From: Raja brachyura
Taxonomy: Eukaryota
Assembly (NCBI GenBank): GCA_963514005.1
Contig: OY740797.1
Span: forward strand, 24,738,001-24,802,000
DNA: 64,000 bases
Direction of reading: 5' to 3'
Shown: piece after piece, positions 381 through 64,000 of the stretch
Layout of the letters: each line of letters begins with the position of its first letter
Position numbering within the stretch: position 1 is the first letter of the stretch
Notes under the pieces: model-generated
Told to the model about the DNA's origin: nothing
The model's input: the letters and a program-made list of their open reading frames with translations, nothing else
Databases searched by the model: none
Position numbers and translations under genes: made by a program

Positions 381-412
381 CAGAGAAGCTTAAAGAACGG
401 AAAACATCCCAA
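381..412 (+). CDS. Candidate small cytoplasmic exon of the + strand paralogue
   Basis: ttgcatttttcgatgacacag| and CAA|gtgagc, 32 nt, phase 1-0 (xEKLKERKTSQ). Same phase pattern as exon 5 of the minus gene and joins 921 in frame. Confidence 0.4.
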
Positions 413-920
413 GTGAGCATTTAATAAAATGCAGACAGAAGGCTTGCAAACGAGTCAGTGGCCAAATGAATAAAATATAACACATAACGGGGACCAGTAG
501 AAGAAGCTGCCCCGTTCAATTGAACCGTAGGTAGTTGAATAATAGACACAAGAGACAACATTTACTTTCAATCCGATCAACTTTGGGAGATTATGCAGAT
601 GAGGCCTTCAGCAACTATTTCCACGCAGGAACATTAAAAACAAATTGAATTGCCCTCGTTAGCAGTATATTTGATTTGGCTAGTCGCTAATGCATAGTCT
701 TGTGTTTAGCCAATGATCACTGCACAACGCAGAGCAGCGAAAAATGAATCAATTTGTTCTTTCCCAGAAGGAAATATATTAATATAATAACATTTTTCAT
801 ATTAGTAAAGGCATTTGGTATTTTGCTAACATTTACAATGTCCGTTACTGGCGGCAGTGGTGTATTTTTGGAAATATGTTGATGGTGTAATAATTATAAT
901 AACTTGCTGATAACTTTCAG

Positions 921-1031
921 ACAATGCAATCCGAATGTGATCCAAAGTTAACATATACTACTCTAAACATCGCTCGTCTAGAGACATCTATTAAATCCAG
1001 ATACGTTGAAGAAGACATGATATATGCCCAG
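921..1031 (+). CDS. Cytoplasmic ITIM exon of a probable paralogous receptor gene (5' exons outside window)
   Basis: Acceptor taactttcag|, donor CAG|gtaagt, 111 nt, phase 0-0. Reads TMQSECDPKLTYTTLNIARLETSIKSRYVEEDMIYAQ. The end EEDMIYAQ|gtaag parallels EEQITYGQ|gtaag of exon 6 of the minus-strand gene. Confidence 0.72.
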
Positions 1032-1120
1032 GTAAGTGTAATAAGAGCCAATTAATGGAACAACTATGAATCAAAGATGAATGCATGTTAACCAATTATC
1101 TTTGTAAGATGTTTGTCGTT

Positions 1121-3990
1121 ACATAGATACATAGATACATAGACAATAGGTGCAGGAGTAGGCCATTTGGTCCTTCGAGCCAGCACCACCATTCAATGTG
1201 ATCATGGCTGATCATCTACAATCAGTACCCCGTTCCTGCCTTCTCCCCATATCCCTTGATTCCGCTAGTCCAAGAGGTCTATCTAACTCTTTTTTGAATG
1301 CATCCAGTGAATCGGCCTCCATTACCTTCTGAGTCAGAAAATTCCACATATTCACAGCCCTTTGGGTGAAAAAGTTTTCTTCATCTCAGTTCTAAATGGT
1401 CTACCCCTTATTCCTAAACTGTGGCCTCTGGTTCTGGACTCTCCCAAAATCGGGAACATGTTTCCAGCATCTAGCATGTCAAATACCTTAATAATTTTGC
1501 ATGTTTCTATAAGATCCCCTCTCATCCTTCTAAATTCAAATGAGTACAAGCCCAGTCGCTCCAGTCCCTCCATCCCGGGAATTAACCTCGTGAACCGAAG
1601 CTGCACTCCCTCAATAGCAAGAATGTCCTTCATCAAATTAGGTGACCAAAACTGCACACAATACTCCAGGTGTGGTCTCACCAGGGCCCTATACAACTGC
1701 CTATTTGCTCCTATACTCAACTCCTCTCGTTATGAAGGCCAACATGCCATTAACTTTCTTCGCTGCTTGCTGTACTTGCATGCTTCAGTGACTGATGTGC
1801 AAGGACACCCAGGTCTCGGTGTACTGCCCCTTTTCCTAACCTGACAGGTTTCAGATAATAATCTGCCATCCTGTTCTTGCCACCAGTGGATAACCTCATA
1901 TTTATCCACATTATGCTGCATTGCCATGCATCTGCCCACTCACCCAACCTGTCCAAGTCACTCTGCAAACTCTTCACAGTTCACACTGCAACCGAGATGT
2001 GTGTCATCTCAAATTTGCTAATGTTACTTTTAATTCCTCCATCTAAATCATTAATATTTATTTAAAATAGCTGCGGTCACAGCACCAAGCCTTGCGGCTG
2101 CCCATTAGTCACTGCCTGCCATTCTGGAATGGACCCGTTAATCCCCTACCCTTTGTTTCCTGTCTGCCAACCAATTTTCTATCCATGTCAATACCCTACA
2201 CCCAATACCATGTGTTCTAATTTTTCCCACTAATCTCCTGTGTGGGACCTTATCAAAGGCTTTCTGAATGTCCAGGTACACTACATCCACTGGCTCTCCC
2301 TTGAACATTTTACTTGTTACATCCTCAAATAATTCCAGAAGATTAGTCAAGCATGATTTCTTCTTCGTAAATCCTTGCTGACTTGACCGATCCTGTTACT
2401 GCTATCCAAGTGTGCTGCAATTACATATTTAGTAATCGACTCCAGCATCTTCCCCACCACCGATGTCAGGCTAACTGGTCTATAATTCCCTGCTTTTTCT
2501 CTCCCTCTCTTCTGAAAATGTGGGATAACATTAGCTCAACTCCAATACACAGGAACTGATCCAGAATCTATAGAACATTGGAAAATTATCACCAATGCGT
2601 CTACGCTTTCTAGAGGCTCTTCCTTGCGTACCCTGGGATGCAGACCATCATGCACCGGGGATTTATCAGCCTTCAGCCCCATCAGTCTACCCAACAACAT
2701 TTCCGGACTGATGTGAATTTCCTTCAGTTCCTCCTTCACCCTAGGTCCTCTGTCCCCTAGTATACAAGGGAGATTGTTTGTGTCTTCCTTAGTGAAGACC
2801 GAACCAAAGTAACTGTTCAACTCATCTGCCATTTCCTTGTTCCCATAATAAATTCGCCTGTTTCTGTCTTCAAGGGACCCACATTTGTCTTAACTCATAT
2901 TTTCCTCTTCACATACCTAAACATTTTTTTGTTGGCCTCCTTTATATTCTTGGCTCGCTTACGTTCATATTTATCTTTTCTCCCAATATTACCTTTTTAG
3001 TTACCTTCTCTTGATCTTTAAAAGTTTCCCAATCCTTTGGTCTCCCGCTCATCTTTGCCATGTTATACATCTTCTCTTTTATTTTTATACTGTCCTTGAC
3101 TTCCCTTGTCAACCATGGTCGCTTCTTACTCCCCTTAGAATCTTTCTTCCTCTTTAGAATGAAATTATCCTGCATTTTCTGGATTATTCCCAGAAGTACC
3201 TGCCATTGGTGTTCACTTATCATATTATGATCACTACCTCCTAATGGTTCCTTTACCTTGAGTTACCTTATCAAATCCGGTTCATTACACAACACTGTAT
3301 CCAGAATTACCTTCTCCCTGGTAGGCTCCAGTACAAGCTGCTCTAAGAATCTATCTCGGAGGCACTGTACAAACTCAATTTCTTGGGGTCCAGTACCAAC
3401 CTGATTTCCCAAGTCTACCTGCATGTTGAAATCTCCCATAACCCCGGTAATATTACCTTTGTTACATGCCAATTTTAACTCATGATGCAACTTGCACCCT
3501 ATATCCAGGATACTATTTGGGGGCATGTAGATAACTCCCATTAGGGTCTTTTTATCCTTACAATTTCTCAGTTCTATCCACAATGACTGCATCTTCTGAT
3601 TCTATGTCGCCCCTCGCAAGGGACTGAATTTAATCCTTCCCAACAGTGCTTCCGGAACCCCTCTGCCCACCTGTCTGTCTTTTCGATAGGACATGTACCC
3701 CTGAATATTCAGTTCCCAGCTCTGATCCTCTTGCAGCCATGTCTCTGTAATTCCCACAACATCATACTTACCAATTTCTAACTGAGCCGCAAGTTCATCC
3801 ACTTTATTTCTTATATTTCGCGCATTGATAAATAACACTTTTAATTCAGTATTCAACTCCCCTCTCACGCCGGTTCCTATTTCACCTGACCTTGCTCTTT
3901 TACCCCTTCTTGAAATTTCCGTCCCATTAATTCGGGTGTCTTTCGTAACCTCACCTGTACACTTTTCCCCTTTAACTCCACCATTATACT
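1121..3990 (-). mobile_element. 5'-truncated CR1/HER1-type LINE, degenerate ORF2 (APE endonuclease + RT)
   Basis: ORF fragments LKVLFINARNIRNK/VVGITETWL, GDFN, VYLDIQKAFDKVPH, RPHLEYCVQFWSP, RTRGHS. Short-repeat 3' tail (atagatac)n at 1121-1147. The 5' boundary is approximate. Confidence 0.92.
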
Positions 3991-6262
3991 TCTAATTTGT
4001 CACCCCTCCCACCTCCCTACTCCGCGACGGCGAGTCCGCAGGCTCCGCTACTGGAGCCCTCAGGTTGGTTCCGGTTGGAGGCCGCCGCTGGCTCCACGAT
4101 GTTAGGCCCCACGACATCGGAAACCCGACAGGGAAAAAGTCGAGTCCCCGTACAGGGAAGAGATAAAACGCCCACCCCCCACAAATACACAGCTAAAAAA
4201 TAATAAAAACTGGAATCAAAAACATACATTTAACGAGACCAAAAAAAAGACAGACTGACTGCAGTTGAGCCGCTGCCGTTTGGTGCCGCCACAGATGTAC
4301 TGAATTTGCGTTTATTATCATTTGTACAAGTATGGCTAGGTACAGGTACGATGACAACCTTGCTCGCAGCACCACCGGCACCAAGAATCAGGCAGCATAC
4401 TACAACATGACTTGTACATAATTATACTTAAGTTATACGTAAGTTCTGCTGGGCAATAGAAAAAATAAAGCAAAGTGGCAGAAAACAAAAAAATTGGCAA
4501 ACACTTCAAAAAAACAGCTCATAGTTTGGCATCGTGGTTTTATCTGAGTAGATTGATAGCACATAGTTGATGATCAGTGGTTTATCGCTGAGGTAGATTG
4601 GTGAGTCTGCTACTTGGCGGCCATGGGGTTTTTGGCCTCTGCGCTTCCTGCAGGATGGGGTAAGAGGCGAGATGTCTTTTGGTGGAGACGGCATGGTCTT
4701 TGGGTTGGAGCGGACTAGATGCCACCATCTTGAGGAAATGCCTAATGTTGATGCTTTAAATGAGAGGATGCTGGCGAGGGTGAAGTACAGAGAGCGGGTT
4801 GATGACCAGTATGAATAAGATCGGACAAATAGCATGTTTTCTTTCTCGTATATTCAATTATTCTCGACACAAAGCACCAAGAAGATAATTTATACAGTAG
4901 TAGACGGCTGAAAGCTAAACATTCATAATTTCTTAGTAACGAAATGCTGAATTAATTTTAAGAAGAATGAGTATATTTGGAGTTGTTTGGGGTGTTTTGT
5001 TGTTTTATTGTGTTTTATTGAGGTCATTGTTCGAGAGATGAGATAGGAGATTTATTTTCAATTCAGTGTACGGAATGCACAGTCTTGAAATACGCAGATT
5101 GTCGACTTCTTTTAAACATGACAAATTATATCATAGATGAAAGTAAATGCACAATTCAGTTGGAAATGATCAGTGGCAAAGACCAATGTTGCTGTCTTAT
5201 ATCTTGTATTCCATTGGACGAGTATGTCTATCAATTAAAATGTTGCATTTATTTTGGTGGCGTAGTTACTGGGAGACAGCTGTCAAAGCAAAAGCTGAAA
5301 TGAATTGACGACGATGTTATGAAATACTATTTTACAGACAATACATGGTCGACCTGAACGCATGGCTGAAGAAATGGATATCAATACAGGGAACATCAAC
5401 AAAATTGTAAAATCGTAATCTACCTTACAATGCAAAATTCGTAGGAATGTTGAGTAGTGCCAAGGCAGCCATGTTTTCCAGTTATATTCGCTGGGAGTTC
5501 TGTATTTGGTGGGCTTTGTTCAGTTTATTTATGGATCCATGCTTTCCTTATGGATTAAAAATACGCAAATTTTGTTAGTCGAATATTCTGCAAACAATAT
5601 GGATTATTTCAAACTGACTAAAAAAAATGCTCTTTTGTACCCAATCGGCCCAGTGACAGTCCCAGTTATGAATTTTCCAATAGTATTCCTCTTTCAGATC
5701 ATACAAATTGTCCATTGACTAACGTAAGGATCTGTATGTGAACTGATGTGGAGATTTTTTTTGTACTCGGGGGTCTTATCTTATCGAACAATTTGCAAAT
5801 GCCTACTAATTAAAAATAGACTCTTCAGGTTAGACCGCTAATCGGCACGAGTAGAAGCCGGGTACATACGAAAACGGTTCTACTTTTTACTACGAGTGGG
5901 ACATGTCGGTGTTTCTTCGTCAATTGAATTGTCCGCAACATGGACGTCATCTTTTTGTTATGGGTGAACATTTCCGTGCTACACCTATATATTATACCAA
6001 TATATTGTAGTAATTATTTTTGCTGTTAATTCTCTGTGAACCAATAAATCCGTTTTAATTCTTGAATGTGAGTGTTGCATTTTGTCTCTGCCTTCTTGAT
6101 TCTTATATGGCTTGAATTGGAAAACTATTCTGACTATCGTCACTGTCTATTCCTACAATAATTTGACATACGTGTAGCAGGTCGCCACTCAGCCTCATAC
6201 GCTTGAGGTATACATGCCAATTCTATCAAATTTCACCCGATAACTAAAGTGTTCTAATCTAA

Positions 6263-9200
6263 GTAGAAACATAGAAACAAGGTGCAGGAGTAGGCCATTC
6301 GGCCCTTCGAGCCTGCACCGCCATTCAATATGATCATGGCTGATCATCCAACTCCATATCCCGTACCTGCCTTCTCTCCATACCCTCCGCTCCCCTTAGC
6401 CACAAGGGCCACATCTAACTCCCTCTTAAATATAGCCAATGAACTGGCCTCAACTACCCTCTGTGGCAGAGAGTTCCAGAGACCCAACACTCTCTGTGTG
6501 AAAAAAGTCCTTCTCATCTCGGTCCTAAAAGGTTTCCCCCTTATCCTTAAGCTGTGACCCCTTGTCCTGGACCTCCCCAAAATCGGGAACAATCTTCCTG
6601 CATCTAGCCTGCCCAACCCCTCAAGAATTTTGTAAGTTTCTATAAGATCGCCTCTCAATCTCCTAAATTATAGAGAGTATAAACCGAGTCTATGCAGTCT
6701 TTGTTCATAAGACAGTCCTGACATCCCAGGAATCAGTCTGGTGAACCTTCTCTGCACTCCCTCTATGGCAATAATGTCCTTCCTCAGATTTGGAGACCCG
6801 AACTGTACGCAATACTCCAGGTGTGGTCTCACAAAGACCCTATACAACTGAAGTAGAAACTCCCTGCTCCTATACTAAAATCCTTTTGCTATGAAAGCTA
6901 ACATACCATTCACTTTCCTCACTGCCTGCTGCACCTGCATGCCTACTTTCAATGACTGGTGTACCATGACACCCAGGTCGCGCTGCATCTCCCCTTTTCC
7001 TAATCGGCCTCCATTTAGATAATAGTCGGTTTTCCTATTTTTGCCACCAAAGTGGATAACCTCACATTTATCCACATTATACTGCATCTGCCAAACATTT
7101 GCCCACTCACCCAGCCTATCCAAGTCACCTTGCAGTCTCCTAGCATCCTCCTCACAGCTAACACTGCCCCCCAGCTTAGTGTCATCCGCAAACTTGGAGA
7201 TATTGCCTTCAATTCCCTCATCCAGATCATTAATGTATATTGTAAATAGCTGGGGTCCCAGCACTGAGCCTTGCGGTACCCCACTAGTCACTGCCTGCCA
7301 TTGTGAAAAGGACCCGTTTACTCCTACTCTTTGCTTCCTGTTTGCCAGCCAGTTCTCTATCCACATCAATACTGAACCCCCAATGCCGTATGCTTTAAGT
7401 TTATATACTAATCTCTTATGTGGGACCTTGTTGAAAGCCTTCTGGAAGTCCAGATACACCACATCCACTGGTTCTCCCCTATCCATACTACTAGTTACAT
7501 CCTCGAAAAATTCCACAAGATTCGTCAGACATGATTTACCTTTCGTAAATCCATGCTGACTTTGTCCAATGATTTCACCACTTTCCAAATGTGCTGCTAT
7601 CCCATCTTTAATAACTGACTCTAGCAGTTTCCCCACTACCGATGTTAGACTAACTGGTCTATAATTCCCCGTTTTCTCTCTCTCCCCCCCCCCCCCCCCC
7701 CCTTCTTAAAAAGAGGAGTTACATTTGTACCTGCCAATCCTCAGGAACTACTCCAGAATCTAAAGAGTTTTGAAAGATTATCATTAATGCATCCACTATT
7801 TCCGGAGCTACTTCCTTAAGTACTCTGGGATGCAGCCTATCTGGCCCTGTGGATTTATCGGCCTTTAATCCATTCAATTTACCCAACACCACTTCCCGAC
7901 TAACCTGGATTTCACTCAAGTCCTCCTTTGACCCGTGGTCCCCTGCTATTTCCGGCAGATTATTTATGTCTTCCTTGGTGAAGATGGAACCAAAGTAGTT
8001 ATTCAATTGGTCCGCCATATCCTTGTTCCCCATGATCAACTCACCTGTTTCTGCCTGCAAGGGACCTACATACATTAACTAATCTCTTTCTCTTCACATA
8101 TCTATAAAAACTTTTGCAGTCAGTTTTTATGTTCCCTGCCAGTTTTCTTTCATAATCTATTTTTCCTTTCCTAATCAAGCCCTTTGTCCTCCTCTGCTGG
8201 TCTCTGAATTTCTCCCAGTCCTCTGATATGCTGCTTTTTCTGGCTACTTTGTACGCATCATCCTTTGCTTTGATACTATCCCTGATTTCCCTTGTTATCC
8301 ACAGATGCACTACCTTCCCTGATCTATTCTTTTTGCCAAACTGGGATGAACATTTTTTGTAGTTCATCCATGCAGTCTTTAAATGTCTTCCATTGCGTAT
8401 CCACCGTCATCCCTTTTAGAATTGATTGCCAGTCAATCTTGGCCAATTCACGTCTCATACCCTCAAAGTTACCTTTCCTTAAGTTCAGAACCATTGTTTC
8501 TGAATTAACAATGTCACTCTCCATCCTAATGAAGAACTCGACCATATTATGGTCACTCTTGCCCAAGGGGGCACGCACAATAAGACTGCTAACTAACCCT
8601 TCCTCATTACTCAATACCCAGTCTGAAATAGCCTGCTCTCTCGTTGGTTCCTCTACATGTTGATTTAGATAACTATTCCGCATACTTTCCAAAAAATCCT
8701 CTTCCTCAGCACCCCTGCCAATTTGATTCACCCAATCTATATGTAGATGGAAGTCACCCATTATAACTGTTTTGCCTTTGTCGCACGCATTTCTAATTTC
8801 CTGTTTGATACCATCCCCCAACTTCACTACTACTGTTAGGTGGCCTGTACACAACTCCCACTAGCGTTTTCTGCCCCTTAGTGTTTCGCAGCTCTACCCA
8901 TACCGATTCCACATGCTCCAAGCTAATGTCCTTCCTTTCCATTGCGTTAATCTCCTCTCTAACCAGCAATGCTCCCCCACCTCCTTTTCCTTTCTCTCTA
9001 TCCCTCCTGAATATTGAATATCCCTGGATGTTCAGCTCCCAGCCTTGCTCACCCTGGAGCCATGTCTCTGTGATCCCAACTATATCATACTCATTAATAG
9101 CTATCTGCACGTTCAACTCATCCACCTTATTACGAATACTCCTTGCATTGAGACACAAAGCCTTCAGGCTTGATTTTACAACGCTCTTACCCCTTATACA

Positions 9201-10650
9201 ATTTTGTTGAGAAGTGGCCCTTTTTGATTTTTGCCCTGGTTTTGTCTGCCTGCCACTTTTACTTTTCACCTTGCTCCCTATTGCTTCCACCCTCGTTTTA
9301 CACCCACCTGCCTCTATGCTCTTGTACCCATCCCCCTGCCACATTAGTTTAAATCCTCCCCGACAGCACTAGCAAACACTCCCCCAAGGACATTGGTTCC
9401 ATTCCAGCCCAGGTGCAGACCGTCCTGTTTGTACTGGTCCCACCTCCCCCAGAAATGGTTCCAGTGCCCTAAAAATTTGAATCCCTCCCCCTTGCACCAT
9501 TTTTCAAGCCACGTATTCATCTGCAATATCCTCCTACTCTGACTGGCCCGTGGTACTGGTAATAATCCAGAGATTATTACCTTTGAGGTCCTACTTTTAA
9601 GTTTATCTCCTAGCGTCCTACCATCCTGGAGTCTCGTTTGCGGCCGCAGAAATGCCTATCTATTCCCCTGACAATTGAATCCCCTATTATTATTGCCCTT
9701 CCCCTCTTTTCCCCCCCATCATGTGCTGCAGAGCCACCCATGGTGCCATGAACTTGGCTGCTGCTGCATTCCCCTGATGAGCCATCTCCTTCAACATTAT
9801 CCAAAATGGTAAACCTGTTTAGTAGGGAGATGACCGCAGGGGACTCCTGCACTACCTGCCTACTGCTTTGCTGGCTATTGGCCACCCGCTCCCTTTCTGT
9901 CCTCTTACCTTTTACCTGTGGTGTGACCAACTTGCTGTATGGGTTATCCACAACTTTCTCTGCATCGTGGATGCTCCAGTATGAATCCAGCCACAGCTCC
10001 AATCGTCCAATGCGGTCTGCCAGGAGCTGCAGCTGGACACACTTCCTGCAAATGTAGTCACCAGGGACACCGACAATATCCCTGATCTCCCACATGTTGC
10101 AGGCTGAGCAAACCATGGGGCCAATCTCCACTGACATACCTTCCTCCCAAATTACTCTGTATTAAATATATATATTTTTTTAATTTATTCTTTATTAAAC
10201 ACAAAACTTTATCCTTTAAACTTTACTAATAAATACTAATAAATACTGAATCCCTATCTCCCAGAATCCTTAACTCCCAGAATTCTTAACTCCCAGAATC
10301 CTTAAACCTGAAGGCAGAAATGTAAAAATGTAAACCCCGGGTTGCAGCCAATCAGCTGCTTCCTCTGGTCCTCTTCAACCAATCAGAGGCTTCACCAGAT
10401 CCCCTCTCTGGAAGTGAGATGGAACGTTGCAGATGCTGGTCTCACAGCGCAGGTAACTCCACCCTCTCTCTCCAATGGGTCCCCGGGCCTCTGTGAAAAA
10501 CAAGCCCCGCGCTAGATTTATACTCACAGCGCAGGTAGCACCCCCCTCTCTCTCCAACGGCTCCCCGGGCCTCTGAAAAGCAAGCCCCGCGCTAGATTTA
10601 TACTCACAGGTAGCTCCACCCTCTCTCTCCAACGGCTCCCGGGGCCTCTT
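6263..10650 (-). mobile_element. Near full-length CR1/HER1-type LINE: ORF1 (Zn finger + SGNH esterase) and frameshifted ORF2
   Basis: ORF1 CSAC...CRKC, IIGDSIVRG, DGLHL. ORF2 GITETWL, SDHN, SGVPQGSVLGP, FADDTK. Repeated 5'-UTR units at 10440-10650 and a (tagaaaca)n tail. Confidence 0.95.
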
Positions 10651-19490: not shown

Positions 19491-19613
19491 CTATTTAAAA
19501 ATCCTGATTCCTGCATACTCTGTTTCATTGTTCTTCGCCGTTCTTGGATGTTTCAGAGAAGTGGTGAGATCCAGAGTTGCATAGGTCAGTTTATTTTCTG
19601 ACACTTCTTGGAC
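19491..19613 (-). CDS. Exon 7: terminal cytoplasmic exon with ITIM + ITSM
   Basis: Acceptor ttatttttcgatag|, phase 0. Reads VQEVSENKLTYATLDLTTSLKHPRTAKNNETEYAGIRIFK-TAG; LTYATL matches the ITIM and TEYAGI the ITSM (TxYxxI/V) consensus. Confidence 0.88.
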   Translation of the reverse strand, partial: VQEVSENKLTYATLDLTTSLKHPRTAKNNETEYAGIRIFK

Positions 19614-19709: not shown

Positions 19710-19796
19710 CTGGCCATAGGTAATTTGTTCTTCGTGACGTCTGTTTTTTGCAGTTTTCTTCTGTCCGCTGAAATTCATATCTGCGTACGTCGGATA
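19710..19796 (-). CDS. Exon 6: cytoplasmic exon with two Tyr motifs
   Basis: Acceptor ttccctcag|, donor CAG|gtaagg, 87 nt, phase 0-0. Reads YPTYADMNFSGQKKTAKNRRHEEQITYGQ. Confidence 0.82.
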
Positions 19797-20458: not shown

Positions 20459-20502
20459 CTGTTTTTCGAAGTGGTGGGTTCTGGCCTCAATATTTTCTGG
20501 TG
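20459..20502 (-). CDS. Exon 5: first cytoplasmic exon
   Basis: Acceptor ttattatgttctctactag|, donor CAG|gtaatt, 44 nt, phase 1-0, exactly bridging exon 4 to exon 6. Reads APENIEARTHHFEKQ. Confidence 0.72.
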
Positions 20503-21174: not shown

Positions 21175-21285
21175 CTTCAGTACTGTGTAATTTGCACCGC
21201 CTGGCATAAAATACCAACGCTGGAATAATTAACACGCATATGGCAAATCCACCCGCCAGAAAGTAGACGGGTTTAACGCTTGTTC
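21175..21285 (-). CDS. Exon 4: transmembrane exon
   Basis: Acceptor ttttatttcccccttag|, donor GAAG|gtaaga, 111 nt, phase 1-1. Reads GTSVKPVYFLAGGFAICVLIIPALVFYARRCKLHSTE: an uncharged ~22-aa hydrophobic segment followed by a basic stop-transfer RR. Not in the ORF track. Confidence 0.88.
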
Positions 21286-32733: not shown

Positions 32734-33057
32734 CGTGTACAATAAGCCTCGTGCCATTGCTTTTGGAACGCTTTCCTTTCCCGCCTCTCACAGTGCAATA
32801 ATAGATCCCGGAGTCACGGATGCTCACGTCTAACAGATGTAATTCGGCAGATCCCTTCTGGACATTGTTCATGGTCATCCTCCTGTTTGCGGTGGGATCC
32901 AAAGTCTCTTCTTGACCGCCTCTCTTCCAGTATACATCCACCAGTGCGTTCTGACCGAAGATTGGGAAAGTACAGTATAGGGATACATTTTCACCTTTGA
33001 CTTTCGTTACCTTATCTGGAATCTGACGAACCCTGAACGAAGAGGCCCCAACAGTAA
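32734..33057 (-). CDS. Exon 2: V-set Ig domain with germline-encoded J-like G strand (VJ type), NKp30/SIRP-like
   Basis: Acceptor tttttaattctgacag|, donor CACG|gtgagt, 324 nt, phase 1-1. Canonical V residues: GENVSLYC, W (VYWKR), SAELHL, DSGIYYC, and terminal NGTRLIVH. Confidence 0.95.
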
Positions 33058-33227: not shown

Positions 33228-33288
33228 CTGGAAATATATTAATCATGCGCAGGATCGAGAGACACAGCAGCACGGCAAACATAAACAT
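33228..33288 (-). CDS. Exon 1 (leader peptide) of VJ-C1-TM-ITIM Ig-superfamily receptor gene
   Basis: ATG at 33288 reads MFMFAVLLCLSILRMINIFP (hydrophobic signal-like), then a phase-1 donor CCAG|gttaat. A 170-nt intron separates it from the V exon, the classic leader-intron-V layout. Confidence 0.85.
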
Positions 33289-35274: not shown

Positions 35275-38200
35275 TATGAGGCCCAGGGCCGTTTGCTGTT
35301 CTGGAGTCTGATAGTCTTCCAGACGTCCACATCTGCGCCAGGTGTGTCGAGGTTGGGCTCCGAAGGGACCGTATTAGGAACCTGGAGCTGCAGCTCGATG
35401 ACCTCAATCTGGTCAGGGAGAGTGAAGAGGTCATAGAGAGAAGTTACAGAGAGGTGGTCACTCCAAGACCATGGAAGGCAGACAAGTGGGTCACGATTAG
35501 GAGGGGTAAAGGGGCAGAGGCAAGGATTAGAGAGTACCCCGGTGGCTGTACATCTTGGCAATATATACTCCTGTTTGAGTACTGTTGGGGGAGACAGCCT
35601 ACCTAGGGGTAGCGACAGCGGCCGGGCCTCCGGCACAGAGACCGGCCCTGTTGCTCAGAAGGGTAGGGAAAAGAAGAGGAGGGCATTAGTAATAGGGAAC
35701 ACCACAGTTAGGGGGTCAGATAGGTGATTCTGCGGACGCAGTCAGGAGACCCGGATGGTAGTTTGCCTCCCTGGTGCCAGGGTCTGGGATGTGTCTGAAC
35801 ATGTCCAAGATATCCTGAAAGGAGAGGGAGAGAAGCCTAAGGTCGTGGCACATATAGGTACCAATGACATAGGTAGAAAAAGAGAGGGGGTCCTGAAAGG
35901 GGAATTTAGGGAGTTTTGAGGATAGTTAAGGAGAAGGACTGCAAAGGTAACACTCAGGATTACTGCCTGTGCCACGCAACAGTGAGAGTAGGAATGGAGC
36001 GAGGTGGAGGATAAATGTGTAGTTGAAGGACTGGTGGAGGGCATGGATTCAAGCTTCTGGATCATTGGGACCTCTTTTAGGGAAGGTGTGACCTGTACAA
36101 AAAGGACAGGTTGCACTTGAACCAGAGGAGGACCAATATCCTGGCGGGGAGATTTGCAAAGGCTACGGGGAAGACTTTAAACTAGAACAGTTGGGGGGAG
36201 GGACCCAAATAGAGAAAGCTAGTAGACAGTGTGTGAGGCAGGAGGCAGAGAAGAGAAGCACTCAGACCCAACATGTAGGGGAGAAAGAAGAAAAATATAA
36301 TAAACAGAGAATAAGAGGTGGTGGGTTTCTTAAATGTGTGAGCAGAGAGACAGAGGGGTGCAAAATGAGGGTAGAAGCAATTGGTAACAAGGTGAAAAGT
36401 AAAAGTGGCAGGCAGACAAATCCAGGGCAAAAATCAAAAAGGGCCACTTTTCAACACAATTGAATAAGGGGTAAAAGTGTTGTAAAACAAGCCTGAAGGC
36501 TTTATGTCTCAAAGCAAGGAGTATTCGTAATAAGGTGGATGAGTTGAACATGCAGATAGTTATTAATGAATATGATATAGTTGGGATCACGGAGACATGG
36601 CTCCAGGGTGAGCAAGGCTGGGAGCTGAACATCCAGGGATATTCCATATTCAGGAGGGATAGACAGAAAGGAAAAGGAGCTGGAGTAGCATTGCTGGTTA
36701 GAGAGGAGATTAGCGCAATAGAAAGGAAGGACATTAGCTTGGAGGATGTGGAATTGATATGGGTAGAGCTGCGAAACACTAAGGGGCTGGAAACGCTAGT
36801 GGGAGTTGTGTACAGGCCACCTAACAGTAATAGTGTAGTTGGGGATGGCATGAAACAGAAAATTAGAAATGCGAGCAACAAAGGTAAAACAGTTATAATG
36901 GGTGACTTCAATCTACATATAGATTGGGTGAATCAAATTGGCAGGGGTGCTGAGGAAGAGGATTTCTTGGAATGTATGCGGGATAGCTTTCAAAACCAAC
37001 ATGTAGAGGAACCAACGAGAGAGTAGGCTATTCTAGACTGGGTATTGAGTAATGAGGAAGAGTTAGTTAACAGTCTTGTTGTGCGTGGCCCCTTGGGCAA
37101 GAGTGACCATAATATGGTTGAGTTCTTCATTAGGATGGAGAGTGACATAATTAATTCTTAAATAAGGGTTATGAACTTAAAGAAAGGTAACTTTGAGGGT
37201 ATGAGACATGAATTGGCCAAGATGGACTGGCAATTGATTCTTAAAGGGTTGACAGCGGATAGGCAATGGAAGGCATTTAAAGACTGCATGGATGAACTCC
37301 AAAAATTGTTCATCCCAGTTTGGCAAAAGAATAAATCAGGGAACGTAGTACATCTGTGGATAACAAGGGAAAGCAGGGGTAGTATCAAAACAAAAGATGA
37401 AGCATACAAATTAGCCAGAAAAAGCAGCCTACAAGAGGACTGAGAGAAATTCAGAGTCCAGCAGAGGAGGACAAAGTGATTAATTAGGAAAGGAAAAATA
37501 GATTATGAAAGAAAACTGGCCGGGAATGTAAAAACTGACTGCAAAAGTTTTTATAGATATGTGAAGAGAAAAAGATTAGTTAAAACAAATGTAGGTCCCT
37601 TGCAGTCAGAAACAGGTGAATTGATCATGGGGAACAAGGACATGGCAGACTAATTGAATAACTACTTTGGTTCTGTCTTCACTAAGGAAGACATAAATAA
37701 TCTGCCAGAAATAGCAGGGGACCGGGAGTCAAATGAGATGGAACTGAGTGAAATCCACATTAGCCGGGAAGTGGTGTTAGATAAATTGAATGGATTAAAG
37801 GCTGATAAATCCCCAGGGCCAGAAAGGCTGCATCCCAGAATATTTAAGGCAGTAGCCCCAGAAATAGTGGATGCATTAGTGATAATTTTTCAAAACTCTT
37901 TAGAATCTGGAGTTGTTCCTGAGGATTGGAGGGTAGCTAATGTAACCCCACTTTTTAAAAAGGAAAGGAGAGAGAAAACGAGGAATTACAGACCAGATAG
38001 TCTAACATTGGTAGTGGGGAAACTGCTAGAATCGATTATTAAAGGTGGAATAGCTGCAGAATTGGAAAGTGGTGAAATCATTGGACAAAGTCAGCATTGA
38101 TTTATGAAAGGTAAATCATGTCTGACGAATCTTATAGAATTTTTCCAGGAAGTAACTACTAGTTACATCCTCGAAAAAGATAAGGGAGAACCAGTGGATA

Positions 38201-38990
38201 TGTTATATCTAAATCTATTTGCCACTAAAGTGGAAAACCGCACATTTATCCACTTTGGTGGCAAAAACAAACAGGAAAGTAGACTATTATTTGAATGGTG
38301 GCCTATTATGAAAAGGGGAGATGAAATGAGACCTGGGTGTCATGGTACACCAGTCATTGAATGTAGGCATGCAGGTGTAGCAGGCAGTGAAGAAAGCGAA
38401 TGGTATGTTAGCATTCATAGCAAAAGGATTTGAGTATAGGAGCAGGGAGGTTCTACTGCAGTTGTACAGTGTCTTGGTGAGACCACACCTGGAGTATTGC
38501 ATACAGTTTTGGTCTCCTAATCTGAGGAAAGACATTCTTGCCATAGAGGGAGTATAGAGAAGGTTCACTAGACTGATTCCTGGGATGTCAGGACTTTCAT
38601 ATGAAGAAAGACTGGATAGACTCGGCATGTACTCGCTAGAATTTAGAGGATTCAGGGGGATCTTATAGAAACTTACAAAATTCTAAGGAGTTAGACAGGC
38701 TAGATGCAGGAGGATTGCTCCCGATGTTGGGGAAGTCCAGAACAAGGGGTCACAGTTTAAGGATAAGGGGGAAGTCTTGTAGGACCGGGATGAGAAAAAC
38801 ATTTTTCACACAGAGAGTGGTGAATCTCTGGAATTCTCTGCCACAGAAGGTAGTTGAGGCCAGTTCATTGGCTATATTTAAGAGGGAATAAGATGTGGCC
38901 CTTGTGGCCACAGAGATCAGGGGGTATGGAGAGAAGGCAGGTACGGGATACTGAGTTGGATGATCAGCCATGATCATATTGAATGGCGGT
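35275..38990 (+). mobile_element. Chimeric CR1/HER1-type LINE with an internal RT deletion, inserted in a Penelope-type repeat
   Basis: ORF1 (ICARC, esterase RALVIGN...). ORF2 from ~36340 is highly similar to the 6263-10650 element. RT core is deleted near 38200-38250. Confidence 0.9.
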
Positions 38991-39789
38991 GAGAGAGAGG
39001 GAATGCCGGGCTACCTGAAGTGAGAGAAATGAAAAATCATACCACTGGGCTGCAAGCTGGCCAAGCGAAATATGAGGTACCATTCCTCCAATTTGTTATT
39101 GCTATAGAATTTCACTATCAGAATGCAGTTGTTATCTTACAACAACCTATGGCCTAGTTGAGACCATCCGGCCTAATATGTTACGGTTTCGCTTATTTAC
39201 TCCAAAAGTGGACAATTCCATTAATAGCGTGACGAGGAAGATTCGCCAGACCATCGTGAGATTGGGGGGATATCATGACAGCAGAACTTTGGTTGGAAAT
39301 ATAGCTTTCTGTAGGATTTTAAGAGGTTCACAGAGACACGCAACATGAAAACAGGTCATAGTGGTATAGTCATAGAGCACATGTCATAGTGGTATAGTCA
39401 TAGAGCACGGAAAAAAGACCCTCCGGCCCAATTGGTCCACATTAACCAAGATGCTAACATTTACCCGTGTTTTGCCCAAATCCCTCTGCAATATTCTATC
39501 CAAGTACCTGTCTAGCGTCATTTAAATGCTGTTATTATGCCTGCTCCAACTATCTCCTCTAACAGCTCGCTTAATACACCCACCCCCATCTGAGTGTAAA
39601 AGTTGCCCCTCAGGTTTCTTATTAAAGTTTCCCTTCCCACCATAAAATTTTGCCTTCTGCTTCGTGATTCACATCCTTGGGTAAATGACTCTGAGCATTC
39701 AACCTAACTCCAACCTCACGGAGACTTGTAAGTACTGTACCTTTAAACACCGAGGATGGCTTCATGGAGTACGGAAACGTGGCTGTCGG

Positions 39790-41700
39790 ACAGGGCTATA
39801 AGTAAGACTGAAGCATAGAGGACTTCGGCCCCCTCTCGCTACCATCCTACTGGCCAATGTACAGTCACTAGAAAACAAAGTGGAGGCCTTAAGAGCAAGG
39901 CTACTTTACCAAAGGGAGCCGAAGGAATGCTCTGTGTTCTGTTTCATGAGGGACATGGCTCATCCCCAGCTCCCCAGGCTCAGCGGTCCAGCCTGAAGGG
40001 CTCTCCATCCACCGCATGGACCATACGCAGGCATCTGGGAAAGGGAGAGGAGGGGGTGTCTGCCTCATGGTCAACTCTGCGTGGTGCTCGGACATGGCAG
40101 TCCTGTCCAACTCCTGCTCCCCACACCTCGAACATCTGGCGGTGAAGTGCCATCCCTTCTACCTACCGAGGGAATTCTCCTCCATCATCCTGACCGTGGT
40201 CTACATCTCACCCCAGGCAGACGTGCGTCTGACACAGAAGGAACTGCACGCTGTGGTCAACAAGCACCAGACAGTTTACCCCGAGGCATTCACCGCCAAA
40301 GCCAACCTTAAGAAATCACTCCCTAACTTCCACCAACATGTCTCCTGCAGCACCAGAGGGCCAAACACCCTCGACCACTGTTACACGACCATTAAATCCA
40401 GTTAACCCAGTGGCTTTGACCCACTGCAGTTCGCCTAACAGGTCCACGGATGATGCCATCGCCCAAGCCCTACACACATCACTAGAACACCTGGAGAGGA
40501 GAGACACCCACATCAGACTCCTATTCATAGATTACAGCTCTGCCTTTAATACCAACCCAGCTTATCATCAAACTCGCAGGACTTGGGGTCAGCACTCATC
40601 TCTGCAACTGGATCCTCGACTTCCTGGCCAGCAGACCCAAATATGTGAGGATAGGGGACAAATCATCCTCCACAATAATCCTCAAAACTGGTGCTCTGCA
40701 AGGATGTGTTCTCAGCTCCCTTCTTTACTCCTTGTACACCCACGACTGGGCAGCCATGTACAAATCTAATTCAAGTTTCAAATTCCCAGATGACAACACA
40801 ATTGTAAGCCGGATATCAAATAATGATGAGACAGAGTGCAGGAAGGAGATTAATAACTTTGTGTCCTGGTGTCGGGACAATAAGCTTTAGACAATAGACA
40901 ATAGGTGCAGGAGCAGGCCATTTGGTTCTTCGAGCCAGCGCCGCTATTCAATGTGATAATGCCCAATCAGTACCCCGTTCCTACCTTCTCCCCATATCCC
41001 CTGACTCCGCTATTTTTAAGAGCCCTATCTAGCTCACTCTTGAAAGCATCCAGAGAACCTGCCTCCACCACCCTTTGAGGCAGAGAATTCCACAGACAAC
41101 GTCGCTCAACGTCAGCAAGATGGCGATCGACTTTAGGAAGCAAAGTGTTACACATACGCCAGTTTGCATTGATGGTGCCGAAGTAGAGAAGGTCGAAAAC
41201 TTTGAATTCCTCGGAGTCAATGTCACCAATAACTTCACCTGGACCACCATATTGAAGCAACGAGCAAGAAGGTACACCAACGCTTCTGCTTCCTTAGAAG
41301 GCTTAGGATGTTTGGCATGTCCCATACATCCCTCGCCAACTTCTACAGATGCACCATAGAAATCATTTTATCAGGATGCGTCACAGCTTGGTTTTCAGCT
41401 CCATGCAGGACTATAAGAAATTGCATCGAATTGTGGATGCAGCCCAGGCCATCACACAATCCAACCCTTCGATTGATTCCATTTATACTTAATGCTGCCT
41501 TGGCAAGGCCAGCAGCATAATGAAGGACAAGTCGCACCCTGACCACTCCCTCTTCTACCCTCTCCCCTTTCCCATGGGCAAAAGGTGTGAAAACACACAC
41601 CACCAAAGTCATGGACCTTTTCTTCCCAGCTGAATCATCCTACCACAACCAGAGAACAGTGCTGAACTATCTACCTCTGATGTCCCTTGGACTATCCTTG
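39790..41700 (+). mobile_element. Rex1/Babar LINE (internally deleted) interrupted by a minus-strand CR1 3' end (40888-41097)
   Basis: [50 protein letters not shown]. Confidence 0.85.
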
Positions 41701-42974
41701 ACCAGACTCCGGAGGAGTAACCGCGGGGTTATTAAGAAAGAAATCAGAAAGGCAACAAGTGGGAATGAAACAACTTTTGCAGAGAAGATTTGCGAAACTC
41801 CAAAAGAATGTCTATGTATATTAAGGGAAATAGGCTGATTAAGGAGAACATAAGTCCCTTCAAATAACACATTTTATGTCTATGCTTGGAGCTGCATGAG
41901 ATGGGCGAAATGCTGAATGAAAGTTTTTCCCCTGGGGTGTGGTTAATGTTTTGCCTTTATTTGAGAAGGGCTGCAGAAAGAAAACTTGGGAACTATAGAC
42001 CATTATTGTATTGTATTCAATTTATTGTCATTGTCTCATTTTAGAGACAACATAATGGATTTTCCTTACAGTCAGTAACATAAAAGTAAATAATAAATGA
42101 ATAAACTTTTTTTTTTTTTTTAAAGCACAAACACAGAAGTTCACACACAACATAACCCCACAGTGGCACCAGAGTTAAGGAAGGCACCATAGTTCAGCCA
42201 GCCTCCCTGCCGATCTTCCCAGATGCCCTCCCGCCGGGAACGTTGCTCAGGCCCTCTTGCTGGGAACGATGGAACCCCGACGGAGAACATCCTCCGCGGC
42301 CCGGACCTCCAGATCAGCCACCTCCCACCGTAGTCCGTGGCTCCCAAAGTTCACAGGCCGAGCTGGGCGTAGTCGCAGGACTCCTCGATGTTGATCAGCG
42401 CCGCCCGCATTGGGAGCTCCGCGAACCACAGCCCCGCGATGTCAGTGCAGCTGGCCCAGCACTCCGGAGCTGCAATGGTGATCCCCAGTGAGGCATCGCC
42501 CGCCCCTCGATGTTTCCAGCCCTGCGCTGCTGCTGCAGTAGCTCTGGTCACGGCAGGAAAGGCCGCGCCAATCCAGTAGGTAGGCCGCGGGGGGGAGGGC
42601 GCGACTCGAATAATAGTCGCATCCTCTCCAGGAAGCGACTGAAGGACGGTATCCCCCTTACCGTACCCTCTTCCCCCACATAAAGACATTAAAAAAAACA
42701 CAAAAACATCTTCAAACAGAACAAAACATAACAAAAACACAAAAAGATACCGGACTGAAGGCGGAGGCAGCTAGCAACAGCGCAACCGGATGTATTCTTG
42801 ACGTTACTTGACGTTGGACAAGAGTAAGCTTGACGTTACGGGAGACACTATGGCAGAATACAATTTACAGCAAACGTAGGCATGCATTATGGATAGTTAG
42901 CATAGCTTGTGTGTGGGATTATGTGTCTCATTAACCTGGTTGAGTTTGGTGATTATTTAACGAAGAAGAGAGAT

Positions 42975-44322
42975 GAGAGAACATCACTCCCTGATGAGCT
43001 CAATGTGTTTTACGCACGCTTTCATAGTGAGAACATTGATGTGCCTTCCCGTGCCCCCATTCGCCGTGATGGTATTTCGGTCACAGTCACAGAGGCCAAC
43101 GTCAGAAAATCCTTCAGAGGGGTGAACCCTCGGAAAGTGCCTGCACCTGATGGTATACCTGGGCGTGTTTTAAAAACCTGTGTGGAACAACTGGCTGGAG
43201 TTTTTTACGGACATTTTCAACCTCTCACTTCTGAGGTCTGAGGTTCCCACCTGCTTGAAAAGGGAATCAATAATACCGGTGCCCAAGAAGAGTAAGGTGA
43301 CGTGCCTCATTGACTATCGACCAGTGGCACTAACGTCTGTGGTGATGAAGTGCTTTGAGAGGTTGATCATGGTGCAAATCAACTCATATCTTGACAAAAG
43401 CTTGGACCCACTGCAGTTTGCTTACCGCCACAACAGATCAACGGTGGATACGATCTCGCTGGCTCTCCACTCCACTCTGGATCACTTGGACAACAAGAAC
43501 TCATATGTCAGGCTGTTATACATTGACTACAGCTCGGCATTTAATACCATCAGCACAATAACTTTGCTCTCAACACCAGCAAAACCATGGAACTGATTGT
43601 GGACTTCGCAAGGGGTTGGATGGGAACCCACAGTCCCATATATATTAATGGGTTGATGGTGGAAAGGATCAAAAACTGCAAATTCCTGGGCGTGTATATT
43701 TCTGAAGATCTCTCGTGGTCCCAGAACACTGATGCAATCATAAAGAAATCATAAAGAAGATTATGGAGAGTCGGTATGTCAAGGAGGACTCACTCGAACT
43801 TCTACTGGTGCACAGTAGAGAGCATGCTGACAGGTTGCATCATGGCTTGGTACGGCAACCTGAATGTCCAGGAGTGGAAAAGGCTGCAAAACGTGGTAAA
43901 CACGGCCCAGTCCATCATCGGCTCTGACCTCCCTACCATCGAGGGGATCTATCGCAGGCGGTGCCTCAAAAAGGCTGCCAGCAGCATCAAGGAACGACAC
44001 CATCCAGGTCACACACTCATCTCTCCGCTGCCATCAGGTGGAAGGTACACGAGCCTGAAATCTGCAACACCCAGGTTCAAGAACAGCTACTTCCCCACAG
44101 TCATCAGACTATTAAACACAACTTCTAACAAACTCTGAACTATAACAGCCTATTGCACTTTATCTGGTTATTTATGTGTGTGTATATATATATATATTTC
44201 TATGGTATATGGACACAATGATCTGATATGTATTTATGCCTACAATATTCTGGTGTGCTGCAGCAAGCAAGAATTTCATTGCCCTATCTGGGACACATGA
44301 CAATAAACTCTCTTGACTTGAC
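42975..44322 (+). mobile_element. 5'-truncated Rex1/Babar LINE
   Basis: [39 protein letters not shown], (cttga)n tail. Confidence 0.88.
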
Positions 44323-49247: not shown

Positions 49248-49998
49248 CTCTATGAGGTAATCAGGCAGATGGGTTGGTCTGGCTCTTACGAAATATGGGT
49301 AAGTGTACCAATTACATGTTGGTAATATTTACACTTGGTTGTACAATACACAAATGGTTAAGACATAGTCAGCTACTTAGCAGCATCTAACCATGTAAAA
49401 CTGCACAATATTAACATTCCAAGCAGGGTTGCCTTCGAGAGGCAGGATCAGAATTGTGACCCGCATTGTCTTTAAAAAGAAACATGGTGGGAGTCGGATT
49501 ATTTTGGACCTGACAGGACTTAATCCATTTGTGCAGTATAATCATTTTAAAATGGAAACATTTTCTACTGTGAAGCAATTGGTTTCCAGAGGGTGTTACA
49601 TGGCATGTTTAGATCTTAAGGATGCATATTACTCAGTGCCTCTTCATAAAGAATATCGGAGATATTTGAAATTTAGCTGGATGGGGCAATTATGGCAATT
49701 TAGAGCACTGCTTAATGGGTTAACCTCAGCCCGTAGATTTTGGTTTCAGCTGTTAAACTCATGGTTGAGTGATTGGGGTTTCTCATCCATCCAGCTAAAT
49801 CAAACGTGGTGGACTTCCAGTGGTGCTATGGAGTAGGAGGAACCAGCACCGTCCAGCTCCGTAAAATTTGTATTAAAAAACAGGATAAAATGGGGTTATT
49901 TATAGCTACTTATCAGAAAGGAGTGTTTGTGAACGGCACCGGCAGCAGATAAGGCCTCTGACGTTATCAGGCGAGCGACTTTTAAAGCAGTAATATCG

Positions 49999-51093
49999 AT
50001 GAAAAGAACTCCCCCACCCAAAGAGAAAAAATCTGTGCTGAAAAAAGAGGTAGGCCCAGTTGAAGCCTCGACCTCGAGTTTGACTGGCTCTCTGGAGGAT
50101 ATCCCAAGGAAGAAATCTGAAATGGAGGATCTGAAAGCCACCATGAAGGGTGAGTTTAAAAATATGAAGAAAGAATATAAGGAAGAATTTAAGCTGCTCA
50201 GAGGTGACATTGAAATATTTAAAGAACAAGTTAAAGAGGAGTTGAAAAATGAAGTTGTAACCACAGTAAAAATGATGATGGATGAATGGAAGATAAAAGC
50301 AGATGCTGATCTAAAACAACAGATGCATGAAGTTAATCAGAAAGTTGGTGGTTTGGAACTCTCAGTTGATCGCAAGTTGGAACCTATTATGAGAACACTT
50401 GATCAACAACACGAAGCAATAAAGGAACTGACCAATATTGCGGATTCAAGTGCTAAGGCGAATGAGAAACTTCCCTCCGAGAACAAGCGTTTAACAGATT
50501 TATTGAATAAAATAACTGAGAAATGTATTGACTTGGAGGGAAGGCAACGACGTAAGAACTTGCGTATCGTGGGTGTGCGTGAAGGCAAGGAGGGAGCTCA
50601 AGACACCAGAGAGTTTGCTGCAAATCTTCTGAAGAATGTCTTGAATCTGGATCAAGCACCCCTACTTGGCCGAGCGCACAGAGCACTGAGACAACGCCCA
50701 AAGACGGGTTCGCCACCAAGACAACTGATTGTGAAAGTGGTTTACGATCATGTTTTGGAAGACATGATGAAGATAATAATTCGCAAACAGAATCTGTTTT
50801 ATGATGGTGATAAGATCAGCATATTCAGAGATTATCCTGCGGAAGTTGCCAGGAGAAGAGCCCTTTTTACTGAAACAAGGCACATCCTCAGAAATATAAA
50901 GGGCGTGAGATATGGCCTGATGTATCCTGCCACACTGCGAGTGAGCTACGACAACAAAGAGCACCACTTCACTAAACATACCGAAGCTCTGGAGTTCGCA
51001 CGTAAAATCGAGAAGGAGTTGGATGAGGAAGAAGAAGAAGAAGCAGAGGGAACACAGGGAGAAGACGATGATGAAGAAGAGGAGGAAGAATAA
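49999..51093 (+). CDS. L1 ORF1 protein (coiled coil, RRM, CTD; acidic tail), intact 364 aa
   Basis: DLEGRQRRKNLRIVGVREG, RAHR, ISIFRDY, YGLMYPATLRV. Confidence 0.9.
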   Translation: MKRTPPPKEKKSVLKKEVGPVEASTSSLTGSLEDIPRKKSEMEDLKATMKGEFKNMKKEYKEEFKLLRGDIEIFKEQVKEELKNEVVTTVKMMMDEWKIKADADLKQQMHEVNQKVGGLELSVDRKLEPIMRTLDQQHEAIKELTNIADSSAKANEKLPSENKRLTDLLNKITEKCIDLEGRQRRKNLRIVGVREGKEGAQDTREFAANLLKNVLNLDQAPLLGRAHRALRQRPKTGSPPRQLIVKVVYDHVLEDMMKIIIRKQNLFYDGDKISIFRDYPAEVARRRALFTETRHILRNIKGVRYGLMYPATLRVSYDNKEHHFTKHTEALEFARKIEKELDEEEEEEAEGTQGEDDDEEEEEE

Positions 51094-51724
51094 CGAACTT
51101 GAATTATACTCAACACTTACCTGATGCCGATCCACATCCAGCATTAAGGAGGAAGAATGATGAACTTGTAAAATTATTGGACTTGGAGAGCTCAATGATT
51201 GTTAATAATAAACTAATATATAATAGTATTAGTTCAGTACTAACCATTATTAATAAATATATGCGATACCTCCTTAAATAACCTAAAACGATAACAGCAA
51301 ATTAAATCAATAAAGTATTAATAAGAATGGAAATGTAATACCCCGCCCCTAAATATATTGCCCTTAAGGCATTTACGGAACTGGAAATACAAACATCTTT
51401 TTTTTCCCAACGGAAGTCCGTAGTTTAACAGCCACGCTAGTGTGGCTTACACTAACACCACTTTATGTAGCTTTAGACACTCTTTCTTTCCTGCACCTTT
51501 CCAATAATATTACTAACTATTTATTTTCTCTTTTTTATATATTTTTAAAAATATATTATATGTGGAATTATATTATTTTACTTTTGAATGGAATTATACC
51601 GTAGGCTGGAGAGGATATGTATGTCAAATAATGTTATTAGTATTAGTTGATCATAAATTAGGGTACGAAATTGGGATATATGTGCTGAGACATCTACCTC
51701 ATTATAATCCACCATAACATCCTA

Positions 51725-63500: not shown

Positions 63501-64000
63501 TTATACTTAAATTTTGGAAAAACGCATCCACGACAACGTTTAAAATGTGGATTTCAAATATGTCGGAAACGCAACATCTTGAAGAAATGAGATTCCTCCT
63601 ACTACGCAAAGTAGACCAATTCTTAACGATTTGGTCTCCTTTTATCGACTTCTCACAATAATATGGTGCAACATAACATAACCTTAAAAATTAAATGGTT
63701 CAGAACCGGGTGAAAGATATTAAATAGGTATATCTTTCCTAATTTATTTTCCTTTTTTTCCCTCTTTTTTTCAATCTCTTTAGCTTCTTATTTTTTCTTT
63801 CTGCCTCTCTCGCTATACGTTTCTACTCTCTTGTCTATCTATCACGACACTCTCTAATTTCTTCTTTCCATCGCTGCTCTTTAATTATTAAATCAAAAAT
63901 AAGACGTTGTGCAAGAATTGTAACGTGTCTGTATGCATCAGGTTTTTAGGTACCACATTACTGTAGTTACTTCTAACAAAACAAAAAATAATAAATAATA
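57555..64000 (+). mobile_element. Second full-length L1-type LINE (frameshifted ORF1 ~57738-58810, ORF2 ~59887-63661) inserted in the DIRS YR gene
   Basis: 5' GACTTCCGGTGGCGCCATG, YGIIYPAKMRI, QETHLK, YSRIDYF, YADD. The A-rich tail runs to the window end. Confidence 0.92.

Follow-up and report, generated by a model that had tools for sequence, protein, structure and literature searches.

A spliced ITIM tail exon of the leftmost V-C1-TM receptor gene in a likely paired-receptor cluster of Raja brachyura

Near the left end of the window, the 64,000-nucleotide stretch of Raja brachyura contig OY740797.1 that was analysed here, a plus-strand exon carries two tyrosine motifs. The locus raises the question of whether this exon belongs to an expressed receptor gene and whether that gene is a member of a family of paired activating and inhibitory receptors. 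The contig is called C17 below (window base 1 is C17:24738001), and positions given without a prefix are those of the window.

The tyrosine exon and its gene

The exon (921..1031, plus strand; 111 nt, phase 0-0) is bordered by a tttcag acceptor and a gtaagt donor and encodes LTYTTL...MIYAQ, as a sequence-only reading of this DNA had stated. It was found to be tyrosine exon B, the seventh of eight exons of a gene designated g1. All g1 exons lie on the plus strand in the order leader (C17:24723009-060, left of the window), V (C17:24723239-550), C1 (C17:24725852-6154), TM (C17:24732888-986), a 44-nt exon of phase 1-0 (C17:24733636-679), tyrosine exon A (C17:24734608-718; 111 nt, with a phase-0 donor), tyrosine exon B and the last coding exon (5338..5418), which consists of 26 codons and a stop and holds no tyrosine. 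The V, C1 and TM exons, which had been anticipated on this strand upstream of window base 1, lie 14.8, 12.1 and 5.1 kb to the left of it. The 3' UTR (5419..6071, plus strand) contains AATAAA at 6043 and has contig cover to 6024 and 6071. The gene model is intact, with one open chain of 370 aa and GT-AG sites throughout.

Six runs contained the g1 V exon, none of them recorded as RNA, and four (X1, X2, X4 and X5) were examined. Contigs of X1 and X5, which come from two studies with the library kind not on record, covered exon B exactly and joined 1031 to 5338 at GT..AG; contigs of X2 and X4 continued through introns, as DNA would. The depths of the X1 and X5 splice contigs (11.8 and 6.16) recurred on the g1 TM exon, and the X1 bin values of the TM, 44-nt and A exons were 1.73, 1.56 and 3.89, compared with 1.66, 1.55 and 3.92 predicted from depth multiplied by exon length. 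From contig depth and contig extent we infer the joints upstream of 921. Exon 921-1031 is a real exon of an expressed gene, the run kind and tissue being unrecorded, and the expectation that transcripts contain it was borne out by the X1 and X5 contigs. A KIIYTVV stretch at 4874-4910 was considered as the last exon of g1 and ruled out, since the splice runs to 5338.

Exon B is 58.5% identical to the matching stretch of the Mobula (manta) protein P0004, the end of which also matches the last g1 exon. Across the splice joints, the YAQ motifs of g1 read TIYAQT and MIYAQT. When scored against the ITIM consensus, LTYTTL is by motif the sole canonical ITIM among the six tail tyrosines of g1, and MIYAQ does not qualify as an ITIM once spliced. 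A scan for exons with a tyrosine motif followed by Y-x-Q and a GT donor yielded seven matches in 664 kb, six of which are exons of the V-C1 family; five block shuffles used as a control gave 0, 0, 1, 0 and 1 matches.

A candidate phase 1-0 exon had also been proposed at 381-412, in front of exon B. This stretch resembles none of five short tail exons, as 48-167 of 500 shuffles scored equally high in a test in which two of the five reference exons were off by one base. Nor could it follow the phase-0 donor of exon A, and the actual phase 1-0 exon of g1 is C17:24733636-679. The depth of X1 and X5 was zero in the bins over 381-412, although such a hole alone is no proof. The stretch 381..412 (plus strand) is probably intron sequence.

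Two further features were observed around the tyrosine exons. The block 575-4763 is duplicated at C17:24885354-24900574 (74-87% alike), where an orphan frameshifted 113-nt copy of exon B lies behind the end of gene g6. The possibility that exon B is itself an orphan of a g6-type gene was ruled out, the orphan being the copy at C17:24885706. Exon A, read through its donor (C17:24734608-24734724), ends in TIYAQV and a stop, which is an ITSM-type end by the ITSM consensus, and directly behind this exon X1 and X5 have intronic contigs of low depth. A shorter g1 isoform with different signalling is weakly hinted at by this read-through.

The minus-strand neighbour, g2, was modelled as seven exons encoding an open 343-aa chain: leader (33228..33288), single-exon VJ-type V domain (32734..33057; Pfam V-set E 5e-13), C1 (26237..26518; Pfam C1-set E 1.8e-12), TM with an uncharged span (21175..21285), a 44-nt exon of phase 1-0 (20459..20502), exon 6 of phase 0-0 (19710..19796), in which ITYGQ-V is formed across the joint, and the last exon (19491..19613), with LTYATL (ITIM) and TEYAGI (ITSM-type). 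The g2 tail has two ITIMs and one ITSM-type motif. The likeness to g2 exon 6 in motif spacing and donor context that had been noticed for exon 921-1031 was confirmed: the Tyr-to-Tyr spacing is 23 in both, and the donors match (TATGCCCAG followed by GTAAGT in exon 921-1031, TATGGCCAG followed by GTAAGG in g2). The two genes are convergent, as described, but their stop codons are 14.1 kb apart; the 18 kb given for this interval is the distance from exon 921. Identity between g1 and g2 is 36% in V and 44% in C1. Judged by these sequences, they are distant paralogues, both of the inhibitory type, and so are not an activating/inhibitory pair.

The V-C1 cluster and its arginine-bearing members

A scan of 200 kb to the left and 400 kb to the right of the window revealed 14 V-C1 genes at C17:24.723-25.107 Mb (about 385 kb), namely g1 left of the window, g2 inside it and 12 to the right. 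A diversified multigene receptor family had been predicted, and the 14 genes, together with at least 32 V exons on the contig, agree with this; its extension to the left of the window does not hold, with a single gene leftward within 200 kb and 12 genes rightward. V and C1 exons are open in all 14 genes (28 exons), each gene having one C1. In 14 of 14, the G-strand Gly motif lies within the V exon, so that a complete VJ is present in one exon that ends at a phase-1 donor. Because the V exon includes its own G strand, the V-C1 genes do not rearrange.

Each of two genome-wide V searches returned at least 32 V matches, all on C17: 14 in the cluster, 17 at 19.69-20.28 Mb and one at 16.79 Mb. In the second cluster (C17:19.67-20.28 Mb) and the lone 16.79 Mb gene, the TM exons found were mostly uncharged and several C1 exons are broken; one TM exon of the second cluster, at C17:19788644, carries Arg. 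The first cluster is flanked on the left by an OSGIN1-like gene and amino-acid-transporter exons and on the right by an LRR exon, in a flank scan that covered the 300 longest of 805 unmasked ORFs. The order in human 16q is OSGIN1, SLC38A8 and DNAAF1, which the flank order presumably recalls. None of 12 genome matches to MHC class I fell on C17, all being on other contigs, and an MHC class II beta family search of the genome gave no match.

Several genes are damaged. A 200-N gap separates g3 from g4, which ends at the gap; the TM exon of g10 is frameshifted by a single base within a run of T; and a TM exon was sought for g14 and none was found. These three genes, g4, g10 and g14, are incomplete, and g7 has a frameshift in its last exon. 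The possibility that g3/g4 are an uncollapsed allele of g1/g2 was ruled out, as blocks of g1 and g3 other than V show a likeness of only 70-81%. In g13 (C17:25082507-25087235), the 44-nt exon and a 108-nt ITIM exon are duplicated in tandem; the second 44-nt exon may be an alternative cassette, because it is out of frame behind the first ITIM exon.

Mobile elements are also present. LINE ORFs of 386 aa and 859 aa, with fragments, occupy 49933-55503 and 59993-63661 of the window and are taken by us to be L1-like, the former ORF1-like and the latter ORF2-like, and more LINE fragments occur at about 1130-4000, 6260-10400 and 36000-44000. To the left of g1, at a distance of 10 kb, an ORF (L028:4410-5045) that matches tyrosine recombinases (Phage_integrase) is probably part of a DIRS-type element.

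The motif content and arginine positions of the 14 genes were read directly from the models. Seven genes (g1, g2, g5, g7, g8, g12 and g13) combine an uncharged TM with at least one canonical ITIM, and none of these has a TM arginine. Four others (g3, g6, g9 and g11) carry a TM Arg, and in all four genomic models the tail is cut or damaged. g3 has lost its TM donor, and the modelled read-through ends in a short tail free of Tyr. Both g6 and g9 have a 44-nt exon shortened to 36 nt and a repeat that splits the tyrosine exon at its Tyr; the out-of-frame reading of their last exon gives a short tail in the model. The modelled tails of g3, g6 and g9 are Tyr-free and about 10-25 aa long. The first tyrosine exon of g11 has a stop and a Tyr-to-His change, and an ITIM is retained if this broken exon is skipped; the g11 TM is 94% identical to that of g5, its arginine being a single change.

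In a tree built from 44 V domains, with no bony-vertebrate SIRP among them, every arginine gene had an ITIM gene as its sister. The starred clades were g6/g13, g9/g12 and g5/g8/g11, and g1/g3 grouped at 85/64 inside a starred clade with a little-skate gene. V identity is 98% for g1/g3, 93% for g6/g13, 94% for g9/g12 and 97% for g5/g11. Paired activating/inhibitory members had been suggested for this locus; four TM-arginine genes were indeed found, but the convergent g1 and g2 are not the pair, and the partner of g1 is g3, 85 kb rightward on the same strand.

The similarity within pairs is unevenly distributed. DNA identity between g1 and g3 is 98.4% in V, 85.5% in C1 and 83.9% in TM, with synonymous differences in 3 of 103 V codons and 20 of 100 C1 codons. 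The g6/g13 and g9/g12 pairs are about 96% alike over V and C1, and their TMs are 72% and 58% alike. g9 (C17:24953500-24965800) is a mosaic, with V and C1 of the g12 lineage and TM and tail of the g6 lineage. These patterns of sequence identity fit gene conversion or exon shuffling that would keep the ectodomain shared. The g5/g11 identity is uniform and is therefore explained by recent duplication.

Candidate partners for the arginine members were also found. Two zeta-zeta adaptor TM exons with a TM Asp are located at C12:63077436-63077519 and C24:19852044-19852130, and we assume them to be CD3-zeta-like and FcR-gamma-like. An ITAM family search of the genome gave no match, and a complex prediction of the g6 TM with an FcR-gamma-like dimer scored 0.02, which carries no weight for or against docking.

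Relatives, proposed mechanism and rival explanations

Among named proteins, the closest come from little skate (87%) and a hexanchiform shark. Matches to P0002 at E up to 1e-15 were chondrichthyan in 15 of 15 cases, Callorhinchus included, and all 20 proteins chosen for lookup among 83 relatives came from sharks or rays. In six species, the contigs that carry the receptor proteins and the one that carries the OSGIN1-like protein are equal in length, which suggests that both lie on the same chromosome. In a rough survey of the relatives, 14 of 61 TM-bearing proteins were charged, ten of them without an ITIM and four with an ITIM-like motif, and the 47 neutral-TM proteins divided into 30 with and 17 without an ITIM; P0184 and P0222 were wrongly flagged as charged, P0157 and P0196 were missed, and 22 of the 83 rows lacked either a TM or a C1. 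The Leucoraja model P0209 has a g6-type Arg TM with a short tail, and eight shark proteins have in common a TM in which Arg is followed by 16 uncharged residues and D/E-H; their tails measure 11-54 aa. Automatic names within the family conflict (SIRP-alpha-like, tapasin-related, NCR3LG1-like, Ig lambda-like and MHC II beta-like), and this may have kept the family from notice.

We propose, with a probability of roughly two in three, that the 14 genes form a paired-receptor system and that exon 921-1031 is a spliced, ITIM-bearing tail exon of its leftmost V-C1-TM receptor gene, g1. The ITIM members are predicted to be inhibitory and their TM-Arg, cut-tail sisters activating. Once V binds its ligand, LTYTTL would be phosphorylated and would recruit phosphatases of the SHP-1/2 type. 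For the arginine members, the docking site would be the TM aspartate of an FcR-gamma/CD3-zeta-type dimer, whose ITAM would carry the signal, and V-exon conversion would keep both partners on one ligand. Activating-type members may have arisen repeatedly from inhibitory ones, in g3 through a Gly-to-Arg change and donor loss, in g11 through a stop in the first tyrosine exon, and in g6 through an 8-nt deletion and a repeat insertion, with TM and tail common to g9.

The lesions of the arginine genes (lost donor, stop, frameshift) could equally represent decay. The family would then be purely inhibitory or adhesive, and the arginine genes would be decaying copies that gained their charge by chance drift. 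Such a lesion is present in each arginine gene, and the incomplete g4, g10 and g14, the orphan frameshifted exon-B copy and the single change that separates the g11 arginine from the g5-type TM point the same way; moreover, no expression was seen for the arginine genes, with no transcript found for g3, g6, g9 or g11. What speaks against decay is that V and C1 are open in all four genes and that arginine and tail damage go together, with TM arginine in none of the seven ITIM-type genes and a cut or damaged tail in four of four arginine genes. The g6-type TM also recurs in Leucoraja, a conserved Arg-TM type is found in the eight shark proteins, and the g3 V is kept near-identical to that of g1. 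We consider decay an unlikely explanation of the family.

Two other readings concern the identity of the family. It is rather improbable that these genes are cartilaginous-fish SIRPs with one C1 fewer that read a CD47-like self marker on myeloid cells. SIRP-alpha is the best PDB match of P0004 apart from antibody chains (E 2e-14), yet Ig chains score as well; SIRP clusters come first in the Atlas (0.96), and the V-fold ranking is headed by NKp30, at about 30% identity, with SIRP-alpha in 40th place at 23%. Many automatic names of relatives are SIRP-alpha-like, and a joined VJ and C1 with ITIM/charged pairing is the SIRP plan, but each of the 14 genes has one C1, and the cluster flank is OSGIN1-like, not that of the SIRP region. 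The charged residue is Arg in all four genes, whereas SIRP-beta uses DAP12 according to the available part of PMC3533184, and the SIRP family is placed under Tetrapoda in the accessible text of PMC13262535. A role as B7-H6- or tapasin-like V-C1 ligands instead of signalling receptors is very improbable: the NCR3LG1-like and tapasin-related names that favour it belong to a set of names that conflict within the family, and conserved ITIM tails with paired arginine members fit receptors.

If the paired-receptor reading is correct, about 30 membrane VJ-C1 receptors with ITIM/arginine sisters offer testable candidates for how NK or myeloid cells of sharks sense self and non-self, and activating-type receptors would have arisen from inhibitory ones several times in one cluster. 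The paired-receptor principle itself is already well known. To our knowledge, little has been learned about polygenic activating/inhibitory receptors in cartilaginous fish, for which MDIR and NKp30 have been named. According to the available parts of two studies (PMC12227049, PMC10751288), there is an active search for VJ-C1 genes that do not rearrange, as relics of the precursor of antigen receptors. No description of a V-C1 paired family was found in the literature searched, including the main text of PMC3964593, the supplement of which may list such genes. Ohta 2019, as cited in the available part of PMC10751288, treats VJ-C1 genes, and the chances that the family is undescribed are near even. 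A wider view is tentative and on the whole doubtful: that this is an undescribed chondrichthyan-wide germline NK/myeloid receptor family with the plan of one TCR or Ig light chain (joined VJ and C1), which in sharks and rays alike has stayed on the OSGIN1 chromosome, fills the KIR/Ly49/NITR role and represents, in living animals, the kind of non-rearranging VJ-C1 signalling receptor from which antigen receptors have been proposed to descend.

Comparison with known receptor systems

Cartilaginous-fish UrIg, UrIg2 and PRARP also have a single-exon VJ followed by C1, as described in the available sections of PMC12227049 and PMC10751288. UrIg is secreted, has three C1 and is MHC-linked, and UrIg2 is a ten-domain form with linkage to IgH/TCR (PMC12227049, same sections). 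By these partial descriptions, the present V-C1-TM membrane family, with no VJ followed by three or more C1, stands apart from both, neither of which is described there as a two-domain ITIM/Arg multigene family. It also differs from rearranging Ig/TCR genes, as its V and J are not split and a complete VJ is found in one exon. NITRs are composed of a V and an I-type domain. Skate MDIR and teleost NITR are multigene activating/inhibitory IgSF families of fishes, and MDIRs resemble CD300/TREM/pIgR (PMC3031540, part available). By description, not by sequence comparison, the present family is set apart from both by a second domain of the C1-set (Pfam E 1.8e-12).

NKp30/NCR3 gave the best fold match to the V domain of g1, at a TM-score of 0.80 and about 30% identity, and Ig lambda followed closely; matches in a PDB V-profile search were dominated by multi-domain proteins. 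NKp30 has a TM Arg, uses zeta/FcR-gamma and lacks a C1. The family resembles it in the joined VJ with GxG and in the TM Arg, and differs in having a C1 exon in 14 of 14 genes, in being mostly ITIM-type and in the location of MHC class I matches on other contigs. In the parts available of the respective papers, NKp30 is described as having a joined VJ with GxG (PMC11599192) and as MHC-linked (PMC10751288).

Likeness to SIRP, the top Atlas match, lies in a non-rearranging joined-VJ domain followed by C1, in clustered genes and in the pairing of an ITIM member with a short-tailed, charged-TM member. The SIRP ectodomain is V-C1-C1, and the TM charge of SIRP-beta is Lys. The present family has one C1 instead of two, a V-C1-C1 ectodomain being found in none of the 14 genes, and its TM charge is Arg, not a DAP12-type Lys. 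It also comprises about 30 genes in many old V lineages and is OSGIN1-linked, and its named close relatives are all from cartilaginous fish. SIRP-beta signals with DAP12, as given in the part of PMC3533184 available.

The resemblance to LILR/PIR/Fc-alpha-R concerns the signalling plan and not the ectodomain. Those receptors have C2-type domains and an N-x-x-R in the TM, which the N-C-x-R of g6 and g9 resembles. Their TM Arg pairs with FcR-gamma, in opposition to ITIM members (PMC3533184, available part).

Paired receptors, as defined in the available part of PMC3533184, have similar ectodomains in opposite members, and here V identity is 93-98% between sisters in the V tree. Inhibitory ITIM members are represented by seven of 14 models, with the exon B splice observed in g1, and short-tailed TM Arg/Lys members by the g3, g6 and g9 models, which are genomic only, g11 being ambiguous. 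Chromosomal clustering is evident from 14 genes in about 385 kb and at least 32 V exons on C17. Taken by analogy, the best reading is that the V-C1 family would work like paired receptors of the SIRP/LILR type.
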